This document shows, piece by piece, positions 862 through 13,786 of a stretch of DNA of 48,220 nt. The number at the start of each line of letters is the position of its first letter. Within the stretch, counting starts at the first letter, position 1. The notes under the pieces are model-generated. The model did not search any database, was not told the origin of the DNA, and saw only the letters and a list, made by a program, of their open reading frames with translations. A program made the position numbers and the translations under genes. Origin of the DNA: an uncultured Thermodesulfobacteriota bacterium (lineage in GTDB: Bacteria; Desulfobacterota; B13-G15; RBG-16-54-18). The stretch spans positions 1 through 48,220 of the forward strand of contig CAZMFG010000001.1 in NCBI GenBank assembly GCA_964565525.1, given 5' to 3'.

Positions 862-1845
862 CTATTCGAAGGCAAACTCCTTCTCGTAAAAGACCCGCAG
901 ACAGGCATCGACAACCACGGGATCATACAGCGTGCCCTTGTTGTGCAGGATTTCCTCCAATGCCTCCCCGATGCCATGGGCCGGTCGGTAGGGCCGGTGT
1001 GAGGCCATAGCCTCCACCACGTCGGCTACCGCCAAGATCCGCGCCTCCAACATGATCTCATCACCCGAAAGTCCCTGAGGATAGCCGGTACCATCGAGCA
1101 ATTCATGGTGTTGCAGGACGATTTTGGCAATCGGCCGAGAATACTCGATCCCATATAATATATCATGACCTATTTGGGGATGGGCCTCAATGATATTGAA
1201 CTCGGGTTCGCTTAATCGAGTGGGCTTGATGAGGATCTCAGTCGGGACATTTACCTTGCCGATATCATGAACAATGGCTGCCAGACGGAGCCTCTCGATC
1301 TTGCCCGTAGGAAGTCTCATTTCCCCGGCAATGGCACAGGCGAGCTTTGCCACCCTTTTTTGGTGACCGGCGGTAAAGGGATCCCGTATCTCGGTTACCG
1401 CGGCGATGGCACCGATTGTTTTTTCCAGACTCTTTTTTAATCTCTCAACGCCCTTCTTGAGCTTCTTTTCCGTTTGGGAGTGTTTGGTAATTTCATCCTG
1501 CAGCTGTCTGTTCGCTGTGGCAAGCTCGGCCGTGCGCATCCTCACCTGCAGTTCTAAGCTGTTATAGGCGTCCAACAATTCCTTCTCCGCCAGGCCGAGC
1601 TTTTGCGTAAGCCGCAACAGGGAATACACAATGGGTGGGGACACAAGGGCAGGGACAAGGATGGAGGAGAAAATGCCAACAGGCACAAATGCATCTAAAA
1701 GAGTACCAATGAGCCAATACAACAAAAAGGAAGAGAGCATGGCGCACAAGGTAGCCATAATTATCACCTTAATGATTCCGAACCTCCGCAGGAAGTTGCG
1801 CAGCATTATCTCTCGCTTTATCCGTCGTGCAGCTCTATCACGCAT
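862..1845 (-). CDS. Membrane-anchored HD-GYP domain protein (putative c-di-GMP phosphodiesterase)
   Basis: 327-aa ORF with N-terminal hydrophobic helices (IIMATLCAMLSSFLLYWLIGTLL, VPALVSPPIVYSLL) and a coiled-coil-like linker. HD-GYP signatures are AAIVHDIGKV and HHELLDGTGYPQGL. The start could instead be the internal Met14. Confidence 0.85.
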   Translation of the reverse strand: MRDRAARRIKREIMLRNFLRRFGIIKVIIMATLCAMLSSFLLYWLIGTLLDAFVPVGIFSSILVPALVSPPIVYSLLRLTQKLGLAEKELLDAYNSLELQVRMRTAELATANRQLQDEITKHSQTEKKLKKGVERLKKSLEKTIGAIAAVTEIRDPFTAGHQKRVAKLACAIAGEMRLPTGKIERLRLAAIVHDIGKVNVPTEILIKPTRLSEPEFNIIEAHPQIGHDILYGIEYSRPIAKIVLQHHELLDGTGYPQGLSGDEIMLEARILAVADVVEAMASHRPYRPAHGIGEALEEILHNKGTLYDPVVVDACLRVFYEKEFAFE

Positions 1846-2165
1846 TGTCTCTCTCTGGCCTCAGTATCATACGCAGTTGTTGTCATCCATATAGTGCGGC
1901 AATGATACCGACAATACCCCTCACAATAATCTAAATATAATATGCAATAAATATGCCTTATATGGCACTATAAGCCCTATAACTACACGATATAACTGTA
2001 AAAACAAGATAACAGATGCCCAGCCGTCTGACAATATAAAAATACGTCACGATACGTGTTTCGTACATTGACATTATCCAAGGGCTGGGGTAATGATATC
2101 GTACGTACCATTACCATCTCTTACTTTGTCCTAATACTTGTCATGCTACTCAAGCGAGACCGGAG

Positions 2166-4334
2166 ATGAGAATTAAACCCTTCGCTTTTTTGACTGCGGC
2201 CTTAATGCTCTGCATCCTCGTATCTCCTGCGTACGCAACCGATCGGTACGCTGCGGAAACGGGAAAGGGATGCATATTTTGCCACCAGGAGAGTACCGGC
2301 GGGCCGCTCAAGGCCGTCGGCCTTGCCTATATAAAGAACGGCTATCAGTACCCCATCCCCGAGCGGATACTGGATAAGGCCGATGCCCTGCAGGGGCCCG
2401 TTCATACAACACTGAGGTTCATCATCGGATACCTTCATCTCCTGGCGGCCGTCGTATTTTTTGGCGCCATCTTCTATATACACATCTTTATCAGGCCTGC
2501 TCGGCTGATCGGGGGGATTCCAAAACATGAGCGCATCCTCGGCGTCACCTGCATGGTCACCCTTGCCCTCACCGGCACCTATCTGACATGGTCGCGTATC
2601 AGCAGATGGGGGCAGTTTTTCGACAACACCTTCGGCCTCATGCTCTTTGTCAAGATCCTCCTCTTTCTCACAATGGTAGGTATCGGCATTGCCGCCATCA
2701 CGGCCATCAACCGACGCATGCGCAGAGATACGCACGCGTCCGAGGGCCCTCCCGATGCCGATCACATCACCCGTGCCGATGTAGGCTATTTTGACGGCAC
2801 TGATGGCAAGCCCGCCTATGTGCTCTATCAGAATAAGATCTACGATGTCACGGCGAGTCCCAAATGGAAAAAGGGGAGGCACATGGGCAGACATGGTGCG
2901 GGCACGGACCTCACCGAGGCCCTGGCAGGGGCGCCTCACGGCGTAGAGGTCCTGAAAAACGTGAAGTATGTGGGAAAAGTCGCCGAGACAGGAGACATGG
3001 CTCAAGGTCTTACCTTCGCCCAAAAAACCTTTGTCAAGATGGCCTACGCCAATCTGGTGATTATCTTCTTGATCCTCGGTTGCATCAGCGTGTGGCGGTG
3101 GGGTTTTCCCGTGCGCTTGATCCCTGAGACGCGTGCCGCCGTCCTCACCGGGGATACCTGTATCGAATGCCATCAAGAGATAACCCCCGGCATCTACCAG
3201 GATTGGAAGGCGAGCGTTCACGCAAAGGTGGACGTGGGCTGTTATCAGTGTCACAAGGCCGGCGAGGCGGATACTCTCGTCAGCAAGGCCCACCTGGAGA
3301 ACACCCCCGCCCCCATCGCTGTGGTGGTAACCCCTCAGCAATGCGGCGGCTGCCATCCGAAGGAAGCAGCCCAGTACGCACAGAGCAAACACGCACACAC
3401 CCACGAGATCATATGGAAGATCGATCGCTGGCTCAATGACGGTATGAACAACGCCATCGAACGCACAACCGGATGTTACGCCTGTCACGGCACCGTGGTG
3501 AAGCTCACCGAGGGTACACCTCTACCGGGCACGTGGCCTAACGTCGGCGTAGGCAGAAAAAATCCGGACGGCAGTCTCGGCAGCTGCACGAGCTGCCACA
3601 CCAGGCATAAATTTTCAGTAGTAGAAGCGAGGAAACCAGAGGCCTGCGACCAGTGTCACCTCGGACCTGATCATCCCCAGATCGAGATCTACAACGAGTC
3701 CAAGCACGGGACCATCTACCATGCCGAGGGCCAGGGGTGGAACTGGCGTCCTGATGATGGGCACTGGCAGGCGGGGAGAGACTATCGGGCGCCGACCTGT
3801 GCAACATGCCACATGTCAGCGGCGGCCGATGTGGCCGCAACGCACGACGTCACCGAGCGGCTTGCCTGGGAGCTACAGGCCCCCTTGACCGTGAGGCCGG
3901 AGGAATTCAAGCCCTTCCCCGCAGATACCAATTGGAAGGCCGAACGGGAAAAGATGAAAAGGGTGTGCCTGCAGTGCCATGCCCGGCAATGGACCGATGC
4001 CCATTTTGTGAACCTCGATGAGGTGGTGGGCAATTACAACGACACGTACTTCAAACCGATAAAGGGGGTAATCGATTCTCTCTACACAGCGGGCCTCCTT
4101 TCAAACCGCAGCTATTTTGACGAGGAACTCGAATGGCAATTTTATGAGTTCTGGCACCATGAAGGGCGCCGGGCCCGGATGGGGGCCGCCATGATGGCGC
4201 CTGATTACGCCTGGTGGCACGGCTTTTATGAGCTGAAACACCGCTTCAACCATATTAATCAAAAAGCGGAAGAACTGCAAAAAGCGGGGAAGGTTTATAG
4301 GTACAAAAAATTTCCCGGGAGATTTGAACAATAG
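2166..4334 (+). CDS. Membrane-spanning multiheme cytochrome c: N-terminal c-heme, 3 TM helices, cytochrome-b5-like domain, TM helix, HAO-family-like octaheme module
   Basis: 722-aa ORF with signal peptide ..ILVSPAYA/TD. Nine CxxCH motifs: CIFCH at aa 36, then CIECH, CYQCH, CGGCH, CYACH, CTSCH, CDQCH, CATCH and CLQCH between aa 332 and 605. The b5-like heme/steroid-binding pattern is FDGTDGKPAYVLYQNKIYDVTASPKWKKGRHMGRHGAGTDLTEALAGAPHG. The C-terminal ..APDYAWWHGFYE is typical of hydroxylamine-oxidoreductase-family octahemes. Confidence 0.9.
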   Translation: MRIKPFAFLTAALMLCILVSPAYATDRYAAETGKGCIFCHQESTGGPLKAVGLAYIKNGYQYPIPERILDKADALQGPVHTTLRFIIGYLHLLAAVVFFGAIFYIHIFIRPARLIGGIPKHERILGVTCMVTLALTGTYLTWSRISRWGQFFDNTFGLMLFVKILLFLTMVGIGIAAITAINRRMRRDTHASEGPPDADHITRADVGYFDGTDGKPAYVLYQNKIYDVTASPKWKKGRHMGRHGAGTDLTEALAGAPHGVEVLKNVKYVGKVAETGDMAQGLTFAQKTFVKMAYANLVIIFLILGCISVWRWGFPVRLIPETRAAVLTGDTCIECHQEITPGIYQDWKASVHAKVDVGCYQCHKAGEADTLVSKAHLENTPAPIAVVVTPQQCGGCHPKEAAQYAQSKHAHTHEIIWKIDRWLNDGMNNAIERTTGCYACHGTVVKLTEGTPLPGTWPNVGVGRKNPDGSLGSCTSCHTRHKFSVVEARKPEACDQCHLGPDHPQIEIYNESKHGTIYHAEGQGWNWRPDDGHWQAGRDYRAPTCATCHMSAAADVAATHDVTERLAWELQAPLTVRPEEFKPFPADTNWKAEREKMKRVCLQCHARQWTDAHFVNLDEVVGNYNDTYFKPIKGVIDSLYTAGLLSNRSYFDEELEWQFYEFWHHEGRRARMGAAMMAPDYAWWHGFYELKHRFNHINQKAEELQKAGKVYRYKKFPGRFEQ

Positions 4335-4377: not shown

Positions 4378-5718
4378 TCAAAAATAGTAGGTGGCCCACA
4401 GAAAGACGCTGTCTTGCCCCCGGAGTTGGAAGGGAGTACCGGGTATCCTGAACCCGCCGTATTCCGTCCCCTGGCGACCGTAATACACATTCCCCCCCAC
4501 GGTGACCTGGACATCCTGCAAACAATCCCACACCATCCGGGGTTGCACCACACCCGAGGGATCGGCCAGGTTGTTGATCACCGTCAGGTATAAGTTGAGC
4601 AGGGGGTGCAGCTCCACCCTGAGGTGGCCGCTCAGGTAAGTCCTCCCTAAGGTAAAAAGCTCCCCCCGGTCCACCCGTTCGCGGACATCCTGATCGAGCA
4701 GGGCCGAGGGGTAATCTGCTTCCCCGATGCCGCTGTAGAAAAACTCCACGAATCCATACCAGTTCTTCTTCCACCATACCCACGAGTAATCCATGTTGGC
4801 CACCAGGGAGAAATAGTAGTCTTTACCCCTCGTATCGTTCAGAATGGTCCATATCCCATCCACGCGCCAGGCCGCACCCCCCAGGTATCCCGTACTACCG
4901 ATACCAAACACCGCATCTTCGTAGTGCTTGGCAGCCATGATGTCAAACTCTGTTGTGCCCCAGGCGAAGTGAATCTTTCCGGCGAGTGAGGAATGGTTCC
5001 ATTGCACGGTATCCTTGAACGGGTCTTTCCTCGGCACATAGAGAAGGTGGACACCGCCTCTGGTACCCAGGTTGACGTGGACCGAGGCCATATCGTCGCC
5101 GACCTTGTAATCCCGCTCAATGTCCGTCGGCGCAAAGGGGTTACAGATGTCCATTGGGTTAAAGAGCAGACCGTTTCCCCACGTCACCGCCTGCCTGCCG
5201 ATGGTGACAACACCCCATGTCGGCAGCAGGGTCAGGGAGAGCCGGTCGAACCGATGGTAGAGGATATACTGGCCGTCCTCGTGGATGGTCCAGGTCAGGT
5301 CCATCAGACGGCGATCGTCCTCCAGGGGGCCGGCGATCATGAGACCCGTGGTGAAGAGGGAGGGGTAGAGGTCTTGCAACTCTTTCAGCTTGCGCCGGGT
5401 ATCACCCCCTGAGAGGATGGTCTCATGGTGGGCCTCGAAATACCCCCACGTCCCCAAGGAGACCTTGCCCTTAAGCCTGGCCTCGGCGGAGCCGTCATAG
5501 TGCGGTCCGGTGCCTACCGGCTGGAAGAATGACTCCGCGTCGGCCCATGAGATCCCCCCCCGCGCCTTAAGGTGTCCGCCCAATTCCCAGTCGATCTTCT
5601 CGTACCAGGGTTCAGTCTGCGTTTCAGCATCAGGAGTTGCGGCTTGAGGGGTGTCATCGGATGATGCCCGTGCGTAACGCGGAGAAATGAAGATAAATGA
5701 AACGCCTGCGAGCAACAA
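4378..5718 (-). CDS. Putative outer-membrane beta-barrel protein (alginate-export / DUF1302-like)
   Basis: 446-aa ORF rich in alternating aromatic/Gly beta-strand-like sequence. It carries a GRQAVTWGNGLLFNPMD motif and a C-terminal ..VFLWATYYF ending in Phe, as in barrel proteins. It is the last gene of the ABC cluster. The track start is a TTG; the true N-terminus is probably further upstream (see finding on the G6 tract). Confidence 0.6.
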   Translation of the reverse strand: MLLAGVSFIFISPRYARASSDDTPQAATPDAETQTEPWYEKIDWELGGHLKARGGISWADAESFFQPVGTGPHYDGSAEARLKGKVSLGTWGYFEAHHETILSGGDTRRKLKELQDLYPSLFTTGLMIAGPLEDDRRLMDLTWTIHEDGQYILYHRFDRLSLTLLPTWGVVTIGRQAVTWGNGLLFNPMDICNPFAPTDIERDYKVGDDMASVHVNLGTRGGVHLLYVPRKDPFKDTVQWNHSSLAGKIHFAWGTTEFDIMAAKHYEDAVFGIGSTGYLGGAAWRVDGIWTILNDTRGKDYYFSLVANMDYSWVWWKKNWYGFVEFFYSGIGEADYPSALLDQDVRERVDRGELFTLGRTYLSGHLRVELHPLLNLYLTVINNLADPSGVVQPRMVWDCLQDVQVTVGGNVYYGRQGTEYGGFRIPGTPFQLRGQDSVFLWATYYF

Positions 5719-5823
5719 CCCAATAGCTAGTAAGGACTTTTTAAAAACCGTAGTGACTGCCCCCCTCGTGTTTTTCGGTTGCAGTTTTTGTCATCGCCTG
5801 AAGGCTGAAGGCCCTCCTGCCTC

Positions 5824-6513
5824 TCACCCCTTCCGGACCGTTTCTTCCCAAATGCGGCCGTCTTTGAGCTGGATGAGCCGGCGGGCATAGTCCATGACCA
5901 TCTGGTCGTGGGTGGAAAAGATAAAGGTGACCTGTTTCTTCTCGTTCATCTGCTTCATGATCTCCAGAAGACTCGCCCCGGTCTTGGAATCAAGGTTGGC
6001 AGTTGGCTCGTCCGCCAGGACAATGGACGGATCGGATACAATGGACCGGGCCACCGCCACCCGCTGCTGCTGCCCGCCGGAGAGCTCGGCAGGACGACGG
6101 TCGTACATCCCCCCAAGGCCCACCTCGTCTAGGATGGCCCTGGCCCGTTCCCTGCGCTCGGCGGGCGGCACGCCCTGCAGGAGCATGACGAACTCCACGT
6201 TTTCTTGCGCCGAGAGGACCGGAATGAGATTATAGGCCTGGAACACAAAACCGACCTTATGCAGACGCAATTGTGCCAGTTGCGATTGACGCATGGTATT
6301 GAGGACATTCCCATCCACCACGATGCGCCCGGAATCCGCAGAGTCCAACCCCCCGATGATGTTCAGGAGGGTGGTCTTCCCCGAGCCCGAAGGCCCGGCT
6401 ATGGCCACAAATTCCCCTTTTTTAATGGAGAGGCTCACGCCGTCGAGCGCCTTGACTGCCACGGTGTCCTGTTGGTAGGCCTTTTTGACCTTGGTGCATG
6501 TTACCATTGCCAT
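5824..6513 (-). CDS. ABC transporter ATP-binding protein (LolD/MacB-type)
   Basis: Walker [10 protein letters not shown], signature [13 protein letters not shown], Walker [10 protein letters not shown] moved the start from 6546 to the ATG at 6513 (MAMVTCTKV...) because AAGGAG lies 7 nt upstream of it. Confidence 0.9.
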
Positions 6514-6562
6514 CGCGGATCTCCTTCCATGAGCGATCAGGATCAACTCAAAACATCGTGCC

Positions 6563-7798
6563 TCACGTATGTGCCAGGGCCTCCACCGGGGTGAACCGGG
6601 CCGCCTTCACGGCCGGGTACAGGCTCACCACCAACCCCAAGATGAACACCACCAGGTTGGCCATTAAAACGTCTTGGCCTACGATATGGGGATAGATTAC
6701 CCGGGACATACCCCAATATTCCATGCCCGCGGCGAGCGCAGAGAGGTCGATGCCGGTCCCGGAAAGGACGAGGACACTCAAAAACCCCACCGCATTGCCG
6801 ATGGCCATGCCGAGTATCAAGAGACAGAATGATTCGACGAGAACCCCTCTGACGATCCACCACGGCTTCATGCCGAGAGCCTTGAGCAGACCGAACTCCT
6901 TGATCCGTTCGAACACCGCCATCAACGTGGTGTTCACGATGCCGAATCCCATGGCGATAAAAACGACTAAAAACCACAAGAAGATGAACCAGTCGTATAT
7001 CTTCATGATGGCGGAGACCATGGGGAGGATCTCTTGCCAGGTATTGACTTCATACTCTGCTGCGGGGAGCTCGGCCCGTAAGGTGTCGGCCACATGGTCT
7101 GCCTCGCCGTGCTCGGCAAGGAGGACGACGAACTCGGAGATCCCGTGTGATAACCGCAGCATCTCCTGCGCTGCGGGGAGGGTGACGAAGACGAACTGTT
7201 TCTCCGTGGCCTCCATCTCGGCCCGGTAGACCCCGACGATGCGGAAGGCCCGTGAGGCTATCTCTCCCTCGGTATCTTGGGACATAAGGATCAGCTTGTA
7301 GCCCAAGTGGGTATCGAACCGCTCTGCCAGGGCCTGGCCTACCACAATCCCGTAGGGGTCGTCGGACTTCAGATAGCGCCCCTCCGTAATTGCCCCCCCG
7401 ATGAACGAGACGGCCGCCTCTCGTGGGGGATCGATACCCACCATGGTGACACCGGTGGAGTGCCGGGCATTGCTCGCGATGGCGCTGACTCGAACCCGGG
7501 GGACCCACTGGGCGTCGGGGGGCAGGACTGCGGTGAGGGCGGCCTCCACCCGGGCAGGATTTTCTATGCTGTTCTGGACGGCCGGATCGCTTCGGTACCC
7601 CTTCTCGTGCACCTGGACATGCCCGGTGAGGGTGGCGATGCCGTTGCGGACGAACTGGTCGGCGATCCCCCGCATGAGGGCGCCCAAGAAGATCATGCTC
7701 CAGACCCCGATGACGACCGCCGTCAAGATGACCAGGGTCCTGCGGCGATTGCGCCAGATGTTTCGCCATCCTATTTGCAAAAACATGAAAAAATTCAT
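6563..7798 (-). CDS. ABC transporter permease, FtsX/LolC-LolE-MacB type (copy 2)
   Basis: 411 aa. One N-terminal TM, a large periplasmic loop, then three C-terminal TMs with the FtsX-type motif FERIKEFGLLKALGMKP. Same strand and next to the ATPase. Confidence 0.85.
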   Translation of the reverse strand: MNFFMFLQIGWRNIWRNRRRTLVILTAVVIGVWSMIFLGALMRGIADQFVRNGIATLTGHVQVHEKGYRSDPAVQNSIENPARVEAALTAVLPPDAQWVPRVRVSAIASNARHSTGVTMVGIDPPREAAVSFIGGAITEGRYLKSDDPYGIVVGQALAERFDTHLGYKLILMSQDTEGEIASRAFRIVGVYRAEMEATEKQFVFVTLPAAQEMLRLSHGISEFVVLLAEHGEADHVADTLRAELPAAEYEVNTWQEILPMVSAIMKIYDWFIFLWFLVVFIAMGFGIVNTTLMAVFERIKEFGLLKALGMKPWWIVRGVLVESFCLLILGMAIGNAVGFLSVLVLSGTGIDLSALAAGMEYWGMSRVIYPHIVGQDVLMANLVVFILGLVVSLYPAVKAARFTPVEALAHT

Positions 7799-7832
7799 CT
7801 CTGTATTATTAAAACCTACCTGTCGCCCTGCT

Positions 7833-7916
7833 CACCGATCACCGGCCACTTGTCCCTCCCCACCGATCACCGTTTACTGATCACTGGTCACTGATTACTG
7901 ATACACTCTACACCGC
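7833..7916. repeat. Tandem heptanucleotide array (about 10 good plus 2 degenerate units, consensus CACYGRT on the plus strand)
   Basis: Read in strict period 7 from 7833: caccgat caccggc cacttgt ccctccc caccgat caccgtt tactgat cactggt cactgat tactgat acactct acaccgc. It fills most of the 109-nt spacer between the two permease genes and runs into the stop region of the upstream one. Confidence 0.8.
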
Positions 7917-9152
7917 CCTCATCGCCTCCACCGGGCGCAGGCGCCGGACCTTCAGGGCCGGATAGAGTGCGGTCATCAAGGTAATGACCAGCACCAGACC
8001 CGCGCCGACGGCGATGGAAAGGGGTGAAAGCTGGGGATACATCCGTTCAGGCAACCCGTACTGACGCAACATCTCTGAGGTGCCGGAGATGACGATCCCA
8101 TGCACCTGGAAATACCAGGTCACCAGGCTGCCGGCGAGGATACCGAGAGCGGTGCCCAACAGGGTCAGGGTCGTCGATTCAAACAGCAGCAACCTGGTCA
8201 ACCGCCCCGGTGTCGTGCCCAGGGCCATAAAGACGCCGAACTCCCTGGTCCGCTCGAAGATGACCATGAGGAAGGTATTTAATATACTGAAGGCCACCAC
8301 GACGATTAAAATGATATAAAAGATGAACCCGCTGATCAGGTCCATTTTGATGCTCTGGATTAGGCCGGGCATGAGCTCCATCCAGTCCAAGACTACCAGT
8401 TTGTTCTCTTCGTCTATCGTCTTGAGACCGGCTGCAACGGCGCGTTTTACCCGCGGTACTGCCTCCAGGGATACACAGAGGGCAACCACCTCGTGGACAG
8501 CCCCCCTCATGCTATAGACCTCCTGAAAATAGGGGAGAGGCAAATAAATGAAGTTGCGATCGAATTCGTCCTGGCCGTACCGGAAGATCCCCTTGACCCG
8601 AACCACAGTGGCTGCGATGGAGCCGTCGCGCCCCTGACCCAGGAGGACCACCTCATCACCAACCCCTACGCGCAAATTCTTGGCCAGGAGCCCCCCCACC
8701 AAGGCTGCATTGGTATCTCCTTCGGTGAAATAGTGTCCCTCGCGGATCAATTGTTTAAGGGTGGTCACCTGCGTCTCCCTTACCGGATCAATCCCCCTCA
8801 CGGCAACCCCATAGGTCCGCTCTTTGGATGAGACGAGGGAGAAAGCGGTGGCTCGGGCGGTATGGGCGGTCACATCTGGAATGCCTTCCAGAATGCGAGT
8901 GACCGCAGTTGGATCGGACACCACGAGGTGCATGTCCTGTTGCTCGTGGTATCCCGCGGCCTGCACCTGCAGGTGCCCAGTGTGGACCTTTACCGCAGCA
9001 TTGATCATGGTGTCATAGGAGCCGAACTGCCACGACAACATAAAGACCAACAGCACGGTGGCGAAGGCGATGGCGGCCATGGTCAAGACGGCCCGCCTCG
9101 GGTGCCGCCAGATATTCCGCCACGCCATTGTGAGGTCCATGGACATGCGCAC
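7908..9152 (-). CDS. ABC transporter permease, FtsX/LolC-LolE-MacB type (copy 1)
   Basis: 414 aa with the same architecture as 6563..7798. FtsX-type motif FERTREFGVFMALGTTP. Its start abuts the stop of the LolA-like gene. Confidence 0.85.
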   Translation of the reverse strand: MRMSMDLTMAWRNIWRHPRRAVLTMAAIAFATVLLVFMLSWQFGSYDTMINAAVKVHTGHLQVQAAGYHEQQDMHLVVSDPTAVTRILEGIPDVTAHTARATAFSLVSSKERTYGVAVRGIDPVRETQVTTLKQLIREGHYFTEGDTNAALVGGLLAKNLRVGVGDEVVLLGQGRDGSIAATVVRVKGIFRYGQDEFDRNFIYLPLPYFQEVYSMRGAVHEVVALCVSLEAVPRVKRAVAAGLKTIDEENKLVVLDWMELMPGLIQSIKMDLISGFIFYIILIVVVAFSILNTFLMVIFERTREFGVFMALGTTPGRLTRLLLFESTTLTLLGTALGILAGSLVTWYFQVHGIVISGTSEMLRQYGLPERMYPQLSPLSIAVGAGLVLVITLMTALYPALKVRRLRPVEAMRAV

Positions 9153-9914
9153 CTACCGCCGGGGGTTCCGCAAGTTGGAAAGGGTAAAGAGGTTATCGGG
9201 CAGGTCATCCCTGAATTCGAGTTCCCGGTAGGTCAACTCGGTATACTCGTCCTCGACATCGGCCTTCTGCATCCTCCATACCGTGGGAAACAGCCTCCCC
9301 CCCATCATCTGGATCTGCGACCCGGTCATGGCCTTGACCAGGGTGAGGTCCTCATCGTAGAACTCCTCCTGCAATAGGATATGATCCTCCCTGATCTTGA
9401 GCCGCTGCATGCCCCACACCACCGGCGCAGCCGGCTTCGGCATCGATTTGATCACGTACACCTTCTTATCCTCATGGGTCTCGGTGTCCACCAGCGTATG
9501 GGTGTAGTCATCGAGGATACTGTCGGACTTGGCCAGGTCGTTATTGGAGAAGTCCGAGCCCATCCAGGCCTGGGACATCATGGAGGGGGGGATCTTGATC
9601 ACTCGATTGACCTTGGGGTTGTACATCCACATCTCCTTGCCCCGCTTGAGGGTGCCGTTGCCCTTGTCCTTGGAGGGGGCGATGATCACGATGAGGCTGT
9701 CGGATCGTCCTTCAGTCCAGGCCTCGATGGTCATGGGTCGCTCCCAATCCGGGCGATGTATGACCATTTCCACCACGGCGGCGGAGGCCTTGCCCCGCCA
9801 ATAATCGAAACCCGCCTGCACGATGGCCTGGGCATCTTGGGCCTTTGAGCTCGTGCCGGGACCGACACAGAAGAAAATGATTAGCCCGAAGACCAAGCAT
9901 GTCCTTTGCATCAT
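9153..9914 (-). CDS. Periplasmic LolA-like protein (outer membrane lipoprotein-sorting protein family)
   Basis: 253 aa with signal peptide MMQRTCLVFGLIIFFCVGPGTSSKAQD. The segment KEMWMYNPKVNRVIKIPPSMMSQAWMGSDFSNNDL matches the pattern I associate with LolA-like carrier proteins. First gene of the ABC cluster. Confidence 0.6.
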   Translation of the reverse strand: MMQRTCLVFGLIIFFCVGPGTSSKAQDAQAIVQAGFDYWRGKASAAVVEMVIHRPDWERPMTIEAWTEGRSDSLIVIIAPSKDKGNGTLKRGKEMWMYNPKVNRVIKIPPSMMSQAWMGSDFSNNDLAKSDSILDDYTHTLVDTETHEDKKVYVIKSMPKPAAPVVWGMQRLKIREDHILLQEEFYDEDLTLVKAMTGSQIQMMGGRLFPTVWRMQKADVEDEYTELTYRELEFRDDLPDNLFTLSNLRNPRR

Positions 9915-10961: not shown

Positions 10962-11555
10962 TTACGGATCAGGCGATAATTCTACCCGATCGGCTCTCTT
11001 TTTCTTATAATGATAACGGTGTAACGCCCACAGCAACAAGCCGATGATAACCATTGCCCCGAGAATAATGACTTCATAGTGTTTGATGTCACCGAGTATG
11101 ACCTCCAGCGTATGACCAAAGAGGTATCCGCCGGTCCCGACGACGACGGCCCACACAAAGGCCGCAATGACATCCAAGATGATAAATGTTCTTCTCGACA
11201 CAGAACTCATACCAAATAAAAAAGGTATGATCGTACGCATCCCGTACATAAATCGAAATCCCAGGAGCAGGGGGGTTCGAAACCGTTCCAGGAGCCGATG
11301 GGCCCAATCAATACGGGCCTTCCACAAGGGAAATTTGTCCAGCACCCACTGGGTATGCTTGCGACCGAGATAAAAAAACAACTGGTCACCGCAGAGGCTG
11401 CCGATAAAGGCAGCCAGTATTACCCAGGGCAAGGCCAAATAGCCGCGCTGGGCGGCAAATCCTCCCAACACCAAGATGGTCTCTCCCTCGGTAAAGGTGC
11501 CTACTAAAACAGCCCAATAACCGTAAGTTTCCAGGAAGGATTGGAAGGGAATCAT
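10962..11555 (-). CDS. DedA family membrane protein (paralog 1)
   Basis: 197 aa. YGYWAVLVGTFTEGETILVLGGFAAQRGYL...GDQLFFYLGR...FRFMYGMRTIIPF is the SNARE-associated/DedA pattern. Confidence 0.85.
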   Translation of the reverse strand: MIPFQSFLETYGYWAVLVGTFTEGETILVLGGFAAQRGYLALPWVILAAFIGSLCGDQLFFYLGRKHTQWVLDKFPLWKARIDWAHRLLERFRTPLLLGFRFMYGMRTIIPFLFGMSSVSRRTFIILDVIAAFVWAVVVGTGGYLFGHTLEVILGDIKHYEVIILGAMVIIGLLLWALHRYHYKKKRADRVELSPDP

Positions 11556-11976: not shown

Positions 11977-13074
11977 ATGGAACAAGGGAAAAAAGGGTAT
12001 TCATTCAATCGGGTAATCACCTCCGTTGATGAACACCCGCATATCTATATCGTCCCCACCTCTGAGAGGGGAGGGGCCTCAGAGGAACCAGCCCCTCCTG
12101 AAACGGGGCGGTCAGCAAAGGTACGGGGAAAAGCTCAAGAGCCCTCTGTGTCATTCTTCGGCCATCACATAGGCACCCTCCTCACCCCCGGCAAAGCCGA
12201 AAAGGATAAATTTTCCCCCATCGAAAAGGAGCTTGACTCGAGCCTCGATGTTATTCGCAACAAATTCCAGAGGATACAAGCTTCCCATACCCTGCAAGGA
12301 GAGAGGATATCAGAGGAAGAAATAAAGCACCGGCGCTTTATCGATGAACGAAACAGGGCGCAAGAGGAACTCTTCGACGATATTATCCGCTCTCACCGTG
12401 AATTCGGGACCAGCCTCACGGCGGACGATCTGTGGTCGCTCCATGACGTGTTGCACAAGGAGGCCGACCACGAGGCAACGTGCTCCAAGGAGACATCGTT
12501 TCATGAACATATCGAATGCAATCTCCTGAGTTTTTTGCGGGGGAAAGCCGGAGAGCAGGCCTGGCAGCAGGTGGAGGGCTCTAGTGCTCGATCGCATACT
12601 CCCTTCCCCATCCCCTCTTCCATGATAGATCATGCAGAACCGGAGCGCACGGAACAGATCAGGAAAGAAAGAAAAAAGCAGGCCCGGGACGACCTTTTAA
12701 AGATGCCTGCCCCCCAATTGGCCGAGTTGATTTTGGGCAATGTCCCTGTGTGGGTCTATTCATACCCGACGAAAGATACCTATCTGTGGCACTTGACGGT
12801 CCTCCAGGGGGTCGCGGCGGGATTGGCAGCACAATTCCTCATGGAGTACCTTGCCATCTGGGAAAAGAACTCCGCTGAAATTCTCAAAAAAATTCAGAAA
12901 GAGTTCATGGATGAGATTAGGGAACTTCGACAGCGAGGTGAGTCAGCGGCAGATATATCCAAAGCCTTCTCTGTGTCCATGGAACTTCAGCGGATTAGCA
13001 GGGAAGAGATACCTGAATACATCTGGAAGTATATCTCCTCGAAGCTGAAAACGCCGCGAGGACGAGACCACTAA
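11977..13074 (+). CDS. Hypothetical protein (no recognisable domain)
   Basis: 365-aa ORF. GGAG lies 7 nt upstream of the ATG. The N-terminal third is charged and low-complexity. The C-terminal part has a hydrophobic/amphipathic stretch (LTVLQGVAAGLAAQFLMEYLAIW). I recognise no family. Confidence 0.55.
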   Translation: MEQGKKGYSFNRVITSVDEHPHIYIVPTSERGGASEEPAPPETGRSAKVRGKAQEPSVSFFGHHIGTLLTPGKAEKDKFSPIEKELDSSLDVIRNKFQRIQASHTLQGERISEEEIKHRRFIDERNRAQEELFDDIIRSHREFGTSLTADDLWSLHDVLHKEADHEATCSKETSFHEHIECNLLSFLRGKAGEQAWQQVEGSSARSHTPFPIPSSMIDHAEPERTEQIRKERKKQARDDLLKMPAPQLAELILGNVPVWVYSYPTKDTYLWHLTVLQGVAAGLAAQFLMEYLAIWEKNSAEILKKIQKEFMDEIRELRQRGESAADISKAFSVSMELQRISREEIPEYIWKYISSKLKTPRGRDH

Positions 13075-13159: not shown

Positions 13160-13786
13160 TTAGGTCAATCGCATCCCTACAATCTTGTTCCTTCCCTTAC
13201 GAACCCTGCGATGATTCAACGTCATTGTTTTAAGTCTTCTGCGCCGATACAAATGCATAAACCAGAGCATCGCACCTATAATAACAACGACACCCAGTAC
13301 TTCGAGTTCATAGTGTTTGATGTCCCCAATAATAATCTCCAGTGCATGGCCAAAGAAATAACCCCCAACGCCCATCGCCAGTGCCCAAGCGAAGGCGCTC
13401 ACGACGTTGAGCATAATGAATATTATGGTAGGTACTCGACTCATGCCAATTACGAAGGGGGTCACCGTCCGCAGTCCGTACATGAAGCGGAAAGAGATAA
13501 TCACCATTGTACGGTAACGTTCTAGCAGCCTCTGCGCTTTATTGACACGCGCTTGCCAGCGCGGATGTTTGGCCAGCATGCCGTGGCTGTGCCACCGACC
13601 GAGATAAAAATAGAGCTGGTCTCCAAATAGCGTTCCGGCAAATGCAGCTAGAATTACCCACGGCAACTGTAAATATCCTTGGTGTGCCGCAAGCCCACTG
13701 AGAATAAGAACGGTCTCACCCTCGAGGAACGTGCCAACGAAGATGGCTACATAGCCATAGGTCTGAATGAGAGATTCTATCGTCAT
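13160..13786 (-). CDS. DedA family membrane protein (paralog 2)
   Basis: 208 aa. YGYVAIFVGTFLEGETVLILSGLAAHQGYL...GDQLYFYLGR...FRFMYGLRTVTPF. By eye it is roughly 55-60% identical to 10962..11555. Confidence 0.85.
   Translation of the reverse strand: MTIESLIQTYGYVAIFVGTFLEGETVLILSGLAAHQGYLQLPWVILAAFAGTLFGDQLYFYLGRWHSHGMLAKHPRWQARVNKAQRLLERYRTMVIISFRFMYGLRTVTPFVIGMSRVPTIIFIMLNVVSAFAWALAMGVGGYFFGHALEIIIGDIKHYELEVLGVVVIIGAMLWFMHLYRRRRLKTMTLNHRRVRKGRNKIVGMRLT

Follow-up and report, generated by a model that had tools for sequence, protein, structure and literature searches.

A widespread fusion of a CopD-family and cytochrome b5M membrane module with an HAO/IhOCC-type octaheme cytochrome c in Desulfobacterota

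Introduction

HAO-type octaheme enzymes are central to the nitrogen cycle and, to our knowledge, have so far been described as soluble proteins that are served by separate membrane cytochromes. Here we analysed a stretch of 48,220 nucleotides (nt) from an uncultured Thermodesulfobacteriota bacterium (GenBank assembly GCA_964565525.1, contig CAZMFG010000001.1, positions 1 to 48,220, forward strand; hereafter the window), and particularly one gene at 2166..4334 on its forward strand. The product of this gene joins, in a single polypeptide, a mono-heme c region, a three-helix membrane module, a cytochrome b5-like domain, a fourth transmembrane helix (TM) and an octaheme module. A first-pass annotation, made from the letters of the sequence alone, had proposed that the protein is a one-polypeptide transmembrane redox conduit wired to a catalytic module of the hydroxylamine/nitrite type.

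Results

Reading frame and heme motifs

The gene at 2166..4334 (forward strand) is a complete and uninterrupted open reading frame (ORF) of 722 residues, stop codon included, as the first-pass annotation had read it. The nine CxxCH motifs that it had counted were all recovered by script (Cys36, 332, 359, 393, 437, 474, 494, 545 and 601), and no variant heme motif of the CxxxCH or CxxCK type was found by script in the 722-residue protein. The signal peptide, the CIFCH at residue 36, the three helices and the fourth helix were likewise found in place. By hydropathy, hydrophobic segments lie at residues 1-27, 79-116, 124-143, 150-184 and 286-320, and in two AlphaFold2 models helices occupy residues 78-109, 120-144, 155-191 and 284-311/312. 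The full-length AlphaFold2 model was not used for geometry because its heme region is poor (predicted local distance difference test, pLDDT, of 33-46 at residues 474-527).

The octaheme module belongs to the HAO-HDH-IhOCC clade

The C-terminal part (residues 325-707; 3138..4286, forward strand) is a periplasmic IhOCC/HAO-type octaheme module with eight CxxCH motifs, identified by Pfam, PDB sequence search and Foldseek. It matches Multi-haem_cyto (PF13447) with an E value of 1e-29, and in a single-sequence search of the PDB the best match was IhOCC of Ignicoccus hospitalis (4QO5, 1.3e-44), followed by Kuenenia HAOr (6H5L, 1e-28), N. europaea HAO (NeHAO; 1FGJ, 2e-25) and hydrazine dehydrogenase. 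When a family profile was used, the order was unchanged (4QO5 1.1e-59, 6H5L 2e-35, oxidising HAOs about 1e-30), and Foldseek ranked the model in the same way, with IhOCC first and then HAOr. Matches across the superfamily (4QO5, 6H5L, 1FGJ, 4N4J and 6HIF) ranged from 1e-44 to 3e-16, and the NCBIfam model hydrazine_HDH gave a partial match below its threshold. The distal pair Asp502-His503 (GPDH, nt 3669-3674) aligns with the GVDH of NeHAO and is invariant in 73 homologues; both marks of the HAO superfamily, eight CxxCH motifs (residues 332-605) and the distal Asp-His pair, are present. The assignment of this module to the HAO family in the first-pass annotation was borne out by these matches, and the module can be placed in the HAO-HDH-IhOCC clade, nearest to IhOCC and the reductive HAOs.

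The position of the P460 cross-linking tyrosine

In the oxidative HAO/HDH subfamily, which forms covalently linked homotrimers with absorbance at 460-475 nm, a tyrosine (Tyr467 in NeHAO) is cross-linked to the catalytic P460 heme (heme 4) of the neighbouring subunit, and the first-pass annotation had pointed to Tyr681 as the residue that might correspond to it. Tyr681 (nt 4206-4208) lies in a clade signature delimited from alignments, MMAPDYAWWHGFYE (residues 676-689; 4191..4232, forward strand), which ends 33 residues from the C-terminus. Within it, the tyrosine of PDY[AS]WWHGFY is invariant in the examined fused orthologues and in the closest octaheme-only orthologues. Profile and single-sequence PDB alignments either end near NeHAO residue ~407 or miss NeHAO entirely, and because these searches fail to reach the NeHAO C-terminus, we used hhalign and a global alignment on a NeHAO fragment whose C-terminal sequence was verified against 4FAS and 1FGJ (Tyr467 in ...HVNPGGWTYTEGW). 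Both hhalign and the BLOSUM62 global alignment placed NeHAO Tyr467 opposite Trp683, and Tyr681 opposite Gly464/Trp465, and in an ungapped register, set by inspection, Tyr467 stands opposite Trp684. In these low-confidence alignments it is a tryptophan (Trp683 or Trp684), and not Tyr681, that takes the cross-link position, and a correspondence of Tyr681 to NeHAO Tyr467 was not supported. The residues at the Tyr681 position are Trp in IhOCC and Val in both Kuenenia HAOr and a distant homologue (P0194), and in the AlphaFold2 model Tyr681 belongs to the opening turn of the final helix, which a loop of 3 residues precedes, rather than to an extended loop. The tyrosine that marks the oxidative HAO/HDH subfamily was not found at the aligned position, a distinction that is not absolute and is drawn here at low alignment confidence. 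A recent preprint describes Trp at the cross-link position in the HAO-like domain of BpMHAO and in some anammox HAO homologues, and HAOs without the cross-link tyrosine are described as reducing nitrite, nitric oxide (NO) and hydroxylamine and as not oxidising hydroxylamine. Judged from the sequence, a cross-link at heme 4 appears unlikely.

The N-terminal heme c region and the CopD-family membrane module

The protein begins with a predicted Sec-type signal peptide (residues 1-24, cleavage AYA/TD; 2166..2237, forward strand), read from the sequence and from the hydrophobic segment 1-27. This is followed by a small periplasmic mono-heme c region (residues 25-78; 2238..2399, forward strand) with the CIFCH motif at residues 36-40 (nt 2271-2285). 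Cys36, Cys39, His40, Gly45, Leu48 and Gly52 are invariant, including in stand-alone homologues at 35-40% identity, and no conserved local Met or His that could serve as sixth ligand of this heme was found in the region of residues 25-78.

The next part is a three-helix module (TM1, residues 79-109; TM2, 120-144; TM3, 155-191; 2400..2738, forward strand), delimited by Pfam, AlphaFold2 and alignments. It matches CopD (PF05425) at residues 125-191 with 36.1-37.8 bits against a cut-off of 32.1, and all 27 of the 27 tested N-terminal modules (heme c region, membrane helices and b5-like domain; hereafter N-modules) match the same family. In addition, the profile of the N-module family aligned with E. 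coli YebZ by hhalign (E 1.6e-5, probability 79%). On these sequence matches, the module is a CopD-family domain, which the first-pass annotation had missed. His91 (nt 2436-2438) and His106 (nt 2481-2483), both inside TM1 as had been noted, are invariant down to 35% identity together with Lys163 and Met170; His91, Lys163 and Met170 are common to YebZ in the hhalign alignment, and His106 is family-specific, being Trp in YebZ. Since His91 is common to YebZ, it is by itself no evidence for a membrane heme. The basic loop NRRMRRD, also noted before, follows TM3 at residues 182-188.

The protein is not a CopD orthologue, because the NCBIfam CopD equivalog NF033808 scored 28.8 bits against a cut-off of 195; the match spans residues 81-186 and only profile positions 144-258 of 295. 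The N-module carries a single CxxCH, unlike the tetraheme NapC/NrfH family (PF03264 / TIGR03153), and TIGR03153 scored 14.5 bits against a cut-off of 134, with the match falling within the octaheme part. Kinship with HemJ was also considered. A Synechocystis HemJ sequence aligned over TM1 only and not significantly (E 0.01, probability 4%), so that this result was not used, and HemJ gave no Pfam match in the 27 N-modules scanned.

The cytochrome b5M domain, the fourth helix and the topology

A predicted cytoplasmic cytochrome b5 domain of the MAPR-like type (cytb5M) lies at residues 202-272 (2769..2981, forward strand), supported by sequence and fold matches. Its closest solved relatives are archaeal cytb5M proteins (E values of 8e-17 for 6NZX by phmmer and 2.6e-13 for 6VZ6; 2e-15 in the search of the PDB; 38-44% identity), and when the modelled domain was compared with these two structures by Foldseek, the target-normalised TM-score was 0.86-0.89 at a root-mean-square deviation of 1.2-1.4 A. 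The axial heme ligands of 6NZX, H42 and H61, have His239 and His258 as their counterparts in the alignment, and H46 has His243; these three histidines of the fused protein are invariant in fused and stand-alone forms. Although Cyt-b5 (PF00173) scored slightly under its cut-off (21.9-23.1 bits against 23.7), the b5-like domain that the first-pass annotation had recognised is genuine, and it is a prokaryotic MAPR-like cytochrome b5.

TM4 (residues 284-312; 3015..3101, forward strand; hydropathy and AlphaFold2) leads the chain back to the periplasm and is also the final element of stand-alone N-modules. Hemes of the c type are attached on the periplasmic side, so that the N-terminal CxxCH and the eight C-terminal ones must lie outside the membrane. 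Because four helices separate these two periplasmic regions and the b5M domain comes after the third, the domain is placed in the cytoplasm, and the sidedness proposed in the first-pass annotation agrees with this parity. A b5M domain outside would need one of TM1-3 to be non-spanning, as well as the very hydrophobic TM4. Basic clusters lie on both sides of the domain (RRMRRD after TM3 and KTFVK before TM4). The b5M fold does not itself fix the membrane side, because two secreted or lipoprotein-like proteins of other lineages, found in a search of representatives (P0190, 457 residues; P0208, 655 residues) carry five to six tandem cytb5M-like repeats.

Distribution of the fused architecture

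The domain order, which the first-pass annotation had suggested searching for, is that of a large family rather than a one-off. A protein word-index search returned 1206 matches, and in the best 120 clusters, which were inspected, almost all proteins were of 700-760 residues with 61-94% identity, 93-100% query coverage and the same Pfam set. These relatives carry generic database names such as "CopD family protein", "multiheme c-type cytochrome", "hydroxylamine dehydrogenase" and "predicted heme/steroid binding protein". A scan of GTDB genomes gave 582 relatives, and about 50 of the best 80 loci, from which the locus counts are taken, hold a fused gene with nine CxxCH motifs. Two octaheme-only matches at 72% identity (L052 and L056) contain runs of masked N and were set aside. 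The hosts of the fused gene include Desulfobacterales, Syntrophales, Desulfatiglandales and Desulfarculia, with some metagenome-assembled genomes of Leptospirales, Spirochaetales and Krumholzibacteriia; the closed chromosome of the isolate Desulfosarcina widdelii PP31 carries it as well (DSCW_34050). The most divergent fused forms in an exhaustive search of representatives have 43% identity (P0124).

The N-module and the octaheme module also exist as separate genes, as would be expected if a chimeric join or a missed frameshift had fused two genes into this ORF. However, more than 120 independent protein clusters and about 50 loci, the closed D. widdelii chromosome among them, share the identical architecture, and the junction TM4...WRWGFP...C-x-x-CH is conserved. 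This recurrence of the full-length architecture in independent assemblies and in a closed isolate genome goes far beyond chance and excludes a mis-join, and the probability that the ORF is an artefact of assembly or annotation is practically negligible.

The two modules on their own

Octaheme-only genes encode proteins of 450-480 residues with about 60% identity to the fused octaheme part and share the invariant signature WHHEGRRARMGAAMMAPDY[AS]WWHGFYE. They occur in Pirellulales and other Planctomycetota, Desulfovibrionaceae, Desulfohalobiaceae, Desulfobacterium N47, Desulfonauticus and Desulfopila. At 22 loci there is a tetraheme gene coding for about 180 residues, and most octaheme-only loci have it as the immediate upstream neighbour of the octaheme gene; the representative tested belongs to the NapC/NrfH family (PF03264, 7e-36). 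This arrangement fits the statement of the first-pass annotation that HAO-type enzymes normally work with a separate membrane cytochrome. No N-module was found within 6 kb of octaheme-only genes. The fusion can thus be described as a module swap, in which the N-module takes the place that NapC/NrfH holds for the free-standing enzyme. Among 85 loci, no conserved redox or nitrogen-cycle partner of the fused genes was found, only generic sensor kinases. At some loci a second, octaheme-only paralogue lies beside the fused gene (L046:1633-3752, L048:1746-3155, L049:4171-5880 and L054:4399-5847), and an NrfH-type gene adjoins the fused gene at two (L015:3966-4517, and L046). Because genomes with the fused gene hold such paralogues or NrfH-type genes, both kinds of wiring coexist in one organism.

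The stand-alone N-module gene encodes 300-340 residues, comprising a signal peptide, the heme c region, the CopD bundle, b5M and TM4, and is found in Nitrospirota and Desulfobacterota. Two kinds can be told apart: one is a distant clade of Nitrospirota and Thermodesulfovibrionales with about 39% identity, and the other consists of proteins nested in the fused clade (for example P0271 and P0272), which are 78% identical to fused N-terminal parts. The locus of P0272 (L004:6001-6954), on a metagenome contig, is syntenic with the window, with an HD_5 gene upstream and a gene without Pfam match, an ABC ATPase and FtsX permeases downstream. Its N-module gene is 74% identical and ends right after TM4, about 110 bp before the next gene, which indicates that the octaheme domain was gained or lost cleanly, as an add-on to a membrane module that is itself autonomous. 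We also considered a split operon, with the stand-alone N-module and the octaheme gene as neighbours, and rejected it, as N-module loci had no adjacent octaheme gene and octaheme-only loci had no N-module. No conserved partner was found at stand-alone N-module loci. At a single one (L089:7512-10175), a 405-residue multiheme cytochrome (PF13447) and a flavodoxin-like FMN reductase lie near the N-module gene, both on the opposite strand; this is the sole stand-alone N-module locus with a multiheme gene, which is about 1.5 kb away, and the two products could be a partner and donor pair in this one case.

Genomic setting in the window

The fused gene is monocistronic by orientation, the upstream gene being divergent and the downstream gene convergent. 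A sigma-70-like match (TTGACA-18-AATGAT, 10/12, consensus match only) lies at 2068..2097 on the forward strand, about 70 bp 5' of the ATG, and weakly suggests a promoter there. An antisense ORF of 428 residues (2202-3488, reverse strand) lies wholly within the cytochrome gene and most likely results from the codon bias of GC-rich coding sequence. The divergent neighbour (862..1845, reverse strand) encodes a membrane-anchored HD_5 protein of the HD-GYP type; its pairing with an N-module gene recurs in L004, and a regulatory link is possible. The convergent neighbour (4378..5718, reverse strand) encodes a 446-residue protein without a Pfam match and belongs to a cluster at 4378-9914 (reverse strand) that also codes for an ABC ATPase, two MacB_PCD/FtsX permeases and a LolA-like protein. 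Of this cluster, the protein without Pfam match, the ATPase and the permeases are kept beside the N-module gene in L004.

The other genes of the window are those of anaerobe housekeeping, such as the Kup potassium transporter, a P-type ATPase, and enzymes of glycolysis and glycogen metabolism. The window also encodes the anaerobic ribonucleotide reductase NrdD, Lon protease, RlmN and the MacB/Lol-like exporter cluster. Within the window, the fused gene has no linked genes for the nitrogen cycle, hydrogenases or cytochrome maturation. Paralogous genes for VTT/DedA-domain membrane proteins lie at 10962-11555 and 13160-13786 (both reverse strand), and a 365-residue ORF without Pfam match (11977-13074, forward strand) sits between them.

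Discussion

We consider it somewhat probable that the gene product is an octaheme cytochrome c of the reductive kind, integral to the membrane and self-wired. Its C-terminal 400 residues would form an enzyme of the IhOCC/epsilon-Hao/HAOr type, with eight c-hemes, a five-coordinate catalytic heme 4 with the distal Asp-His pair, and no P460 tyrosine; this enzyme would be exposed to the periplasm, with nitrite, hydroxylamine and/or NO as the most likely substrates of reduction. The fused N-terminal module takes the place of the NapC/NrfH menaquinol dehydrogenase that is encoded directly upstream, and usually feeds the enzyme, in relatives where the latter is a separate gene. The data show the identities of the domains, the conservation of the ligands, the topology parity, the exchange of NrfH, the autonomy of the N-module and the lack of an aligned cross-link tyrosine, whereas the substrate, the direction of electron flow, any cofactor inside the membrane and the cytoplasmic donor are inferred. 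Electrons may enter the heme b of b5M at the inner face of the membrane from a cytoplasmic donor, pass to one or two putative cofactors in the CopD-fold bundle, and then move through the N-terminal heme c and the octaheme chain to the substrate. The candidate ligands in the bundle are His106 near the cytoplasmic face and His91, Lys163 and Met170 towards the periplasmic half. In TM1, the hydrophobic core extends from about Phe85 to Ile109; His91 stands some 6 residues in from the periplasmic interface and His106 some 4 residues in from the cytoplasmic one, and Lys163 lies at the depth of His91. In our own reading of the sequence, the spacing of 15 residues between His91 and His106 is that of classical di-heme-ligating helices and would favour an intramembrane cofactor; the N-terminal heme c, with no conserved local sixth ligand, was also counted in favour of such a cofactor.

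Several observations weigh against this account. The transmembrane conduit of the first-pass annotation stays at the level of an inference, its intramembrane cofactor being putative, and His91, Lys163 and Met170 are generic residues of the CopD core, whose representative YebZ is copper-linked and not known to bind heme. Since only one helix has two His residues, bis-His ligation of two hemes would need oligomerisation or the use of Met or Lys ligands. When the membrane module was compared with the PDB by Foldseek, its only neighbours were b5 matches and noise such as TRPV1, and the full-length AlphaFold2 model is mediocre, with a mean pLDDT of 69. The C-terminal hhalign alignment to NeHAO has a probability of 6%, and the clade-invariant Tyr681 is only 2-3 residues from the aligned cross-link position. 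Neither the window nor the homologous loci hold a linked nitrogen-cycle gene or donor gene, so that homology with promiscuous enzymes is the only basis for the proposed substrate. Finally, an outward flow of electrons would dissipate the proton-motive force, and detoxification, or a pull on an unfavourable reduction, would fit better than energy conservation.

Other readings of the same architecture have to be weighed. The N-module could be an analogue of NrfH, i.e. a menaquinol dehydrogenase in which the CopD-fold bundle oxidises quinol and passes electrons to the heme c and the octaheme part, with b5M in an accessory role (regulatory, heme-sensing or as a second entry point). This is attractive in that the N-module stands in the exact place of the NapC/NrfH of octaheme-only orthologues, NrfA, epsilon-Hao and related systems usually draw their electrons from quinol, and no electron transfer across the whole membrane would be needed. 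However, the axial His residues of b5M are invariant in fused and stand-alone forms, which speaks for a central redox function on the cytoplasmic side, CopD-family proteins have no known quinone site, and the family-specific His106 lies at the cytoplasmic end of TM1, beside the docking place of b5M. We regard a quinol-oxidising N-module as rather unlikely.

A copper function of the CopD-fold module, either as a cupric reductase or copper importer powered by the two hemes or as a copper supply to the fused cytochrome, and in place of an electron wire for N-oxide reduction, is improbable. All 27 N-modules score as CopD, His91, Lys163 and Met170 are shared with YebZ, whose neighbour is the copper-binding YobA, the related octaheme enzyme MccA has a heme-copper active site, and cytb5M genes co-localise with ferric-reductase-like membrane proteins in bacteria of the candidate phyla radiation; but the NF033808 score is far from that of a CopD orthologue, a CopC/YobA-type partner and other copper genes are absent from the window and the homologous loci, and the octaheme enzyme needs only NrfH elsewhere, so that the fusion points to electron supply. 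We give still less weight to an oxidative enzyme, in which electrons taken from hydroxylamine, hydrazine or some other donor in the periplasm would flow inward to b5M. Membership of the HAO superfamily, the invariant Tyr681 near the cross-link position and an inward flow that would be electrogenic in the energy-conserving direction are compatible with it, whereas the Trp aligned with NeHAO Tyr467, the closest characterised relatives (IhOCC and HAOr, which lack the cross-link and act as reductases), the pairing of orthologues with NrfH, as in reductases, and the strict-anaerobe lineages of the hosts, with NrdD encoded in the window itself, all speak against it.

Compared with known systems, the fused protein shares single modules with several of them. 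IhOCC (Igni_0955, 4QO5), an octaheme nitrite reductase according to the literature, matches residues 330-700 best in both sequence and fold, and it is likewise HAO-like with eight CxxCH, lacks the P460 tyrosine and is membrane-associated; unlike the fusion, it has no CopD module, b5M or extra heme c, its aligned identity is about 26-30%, and it has Trp at the Tyr681 position. Kuenenia HAOr (Kustc0458/0457, 6H5L) and the epsilonproteobacterial epsilon-Hao have the same octaheme HAO fold, the distal Asp-His pair and no cross-link tyrosine, but are soluble and have separate partners in place of a fused membrane module. The partner of epsilon-Hao is an NrfH-type cytochrome. The partner of Kuenenia HAOr is the diheme Kustc0457, and reductive HAOs of the HAOr/epsilon-Hao type are reported to reduce nitrite, NO and hydroxylamine. 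As in the NrfHA and NrfH-Hao operons, the membrane electron-input position is occupied, here by the fused N-module, which is unrelated to NrfH and combines four TM helices with one heme c and a heme b domain on the cytoplasmic side.

The cytb5M domain resembles 6NZX and 6VZ6 in identity, fold, axial His pair and the equivalent of H46, but these solved proteins are archaeal chains of about 78 residues, whereas in the fusion a bacterial membrane cytochrome carries the domain as an insert between its TM3 and TM4. The resemblance to the CopD family (YebZ, PcoD) consists in the PF05425 match above the gathering threshold and the residues kept in YebZ; only three of about eight helices are present, there is no CopC/YobA partner, and His106 and two heme domains are added. 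A further system for comparison is BpMHAO, an anammox fusion of a multicopper oxidase with HAO, which is also a multidomain HAO-like protein with Trp at the cross-link position, shows hydroxylamine reductase activity and has a domain organisation that its authors call unprecedented; its extra domain is soluble and laccase-like, it has no membrane heme module, and it is restricted to Planctomycetota. In literature searches it was the only other multidomain HAO-like protein found. Full-text searches returned no characterised protein with the domain order reported here, in line with the first-pass annotation, although CopD queries were swamped by the lung disease COPD.

In conclusion, the fused cytochrome is a real and widespread bacterial gene, for whose architecture we found no description and whose copies are databased under generic names. 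It represents a different wiring solution in many sulfate-reducing and syntrophic species of Desulfobacterota and in some other phyla, where a fused module that extends to a heme b domain in the cytoplasm stands in for NrfH. A bolder proposal, which we hold tentatively and with some doubt, is that the N-module represents a hitherto unrecognised class of minimal, quinone-independent transmembrane electron conduits, autonomous in Nitrospirota and Desulfobacterota, and that in the fused form a cytoplasmic reductant drives the multi-electron reduction of N-oxides in the periplasm within one polypeptide of about 10-12 hemes. This is directly testable, because the cultured host Desulfosarcina widdelii PP31 carries DSCW_34050. 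Should the N-module carry electrons through the membrane, it would count as a new type of transmembrane redox device, and a very compact one; the poorly understood CopD fold could then act as a scaffold for redox cofactors, a redox role would be given to it and to the bacterial cytochrome b5M, and the family would represent an overlooked route of nitrite, hydroxylamine or NO turnover in anoxic sediments.

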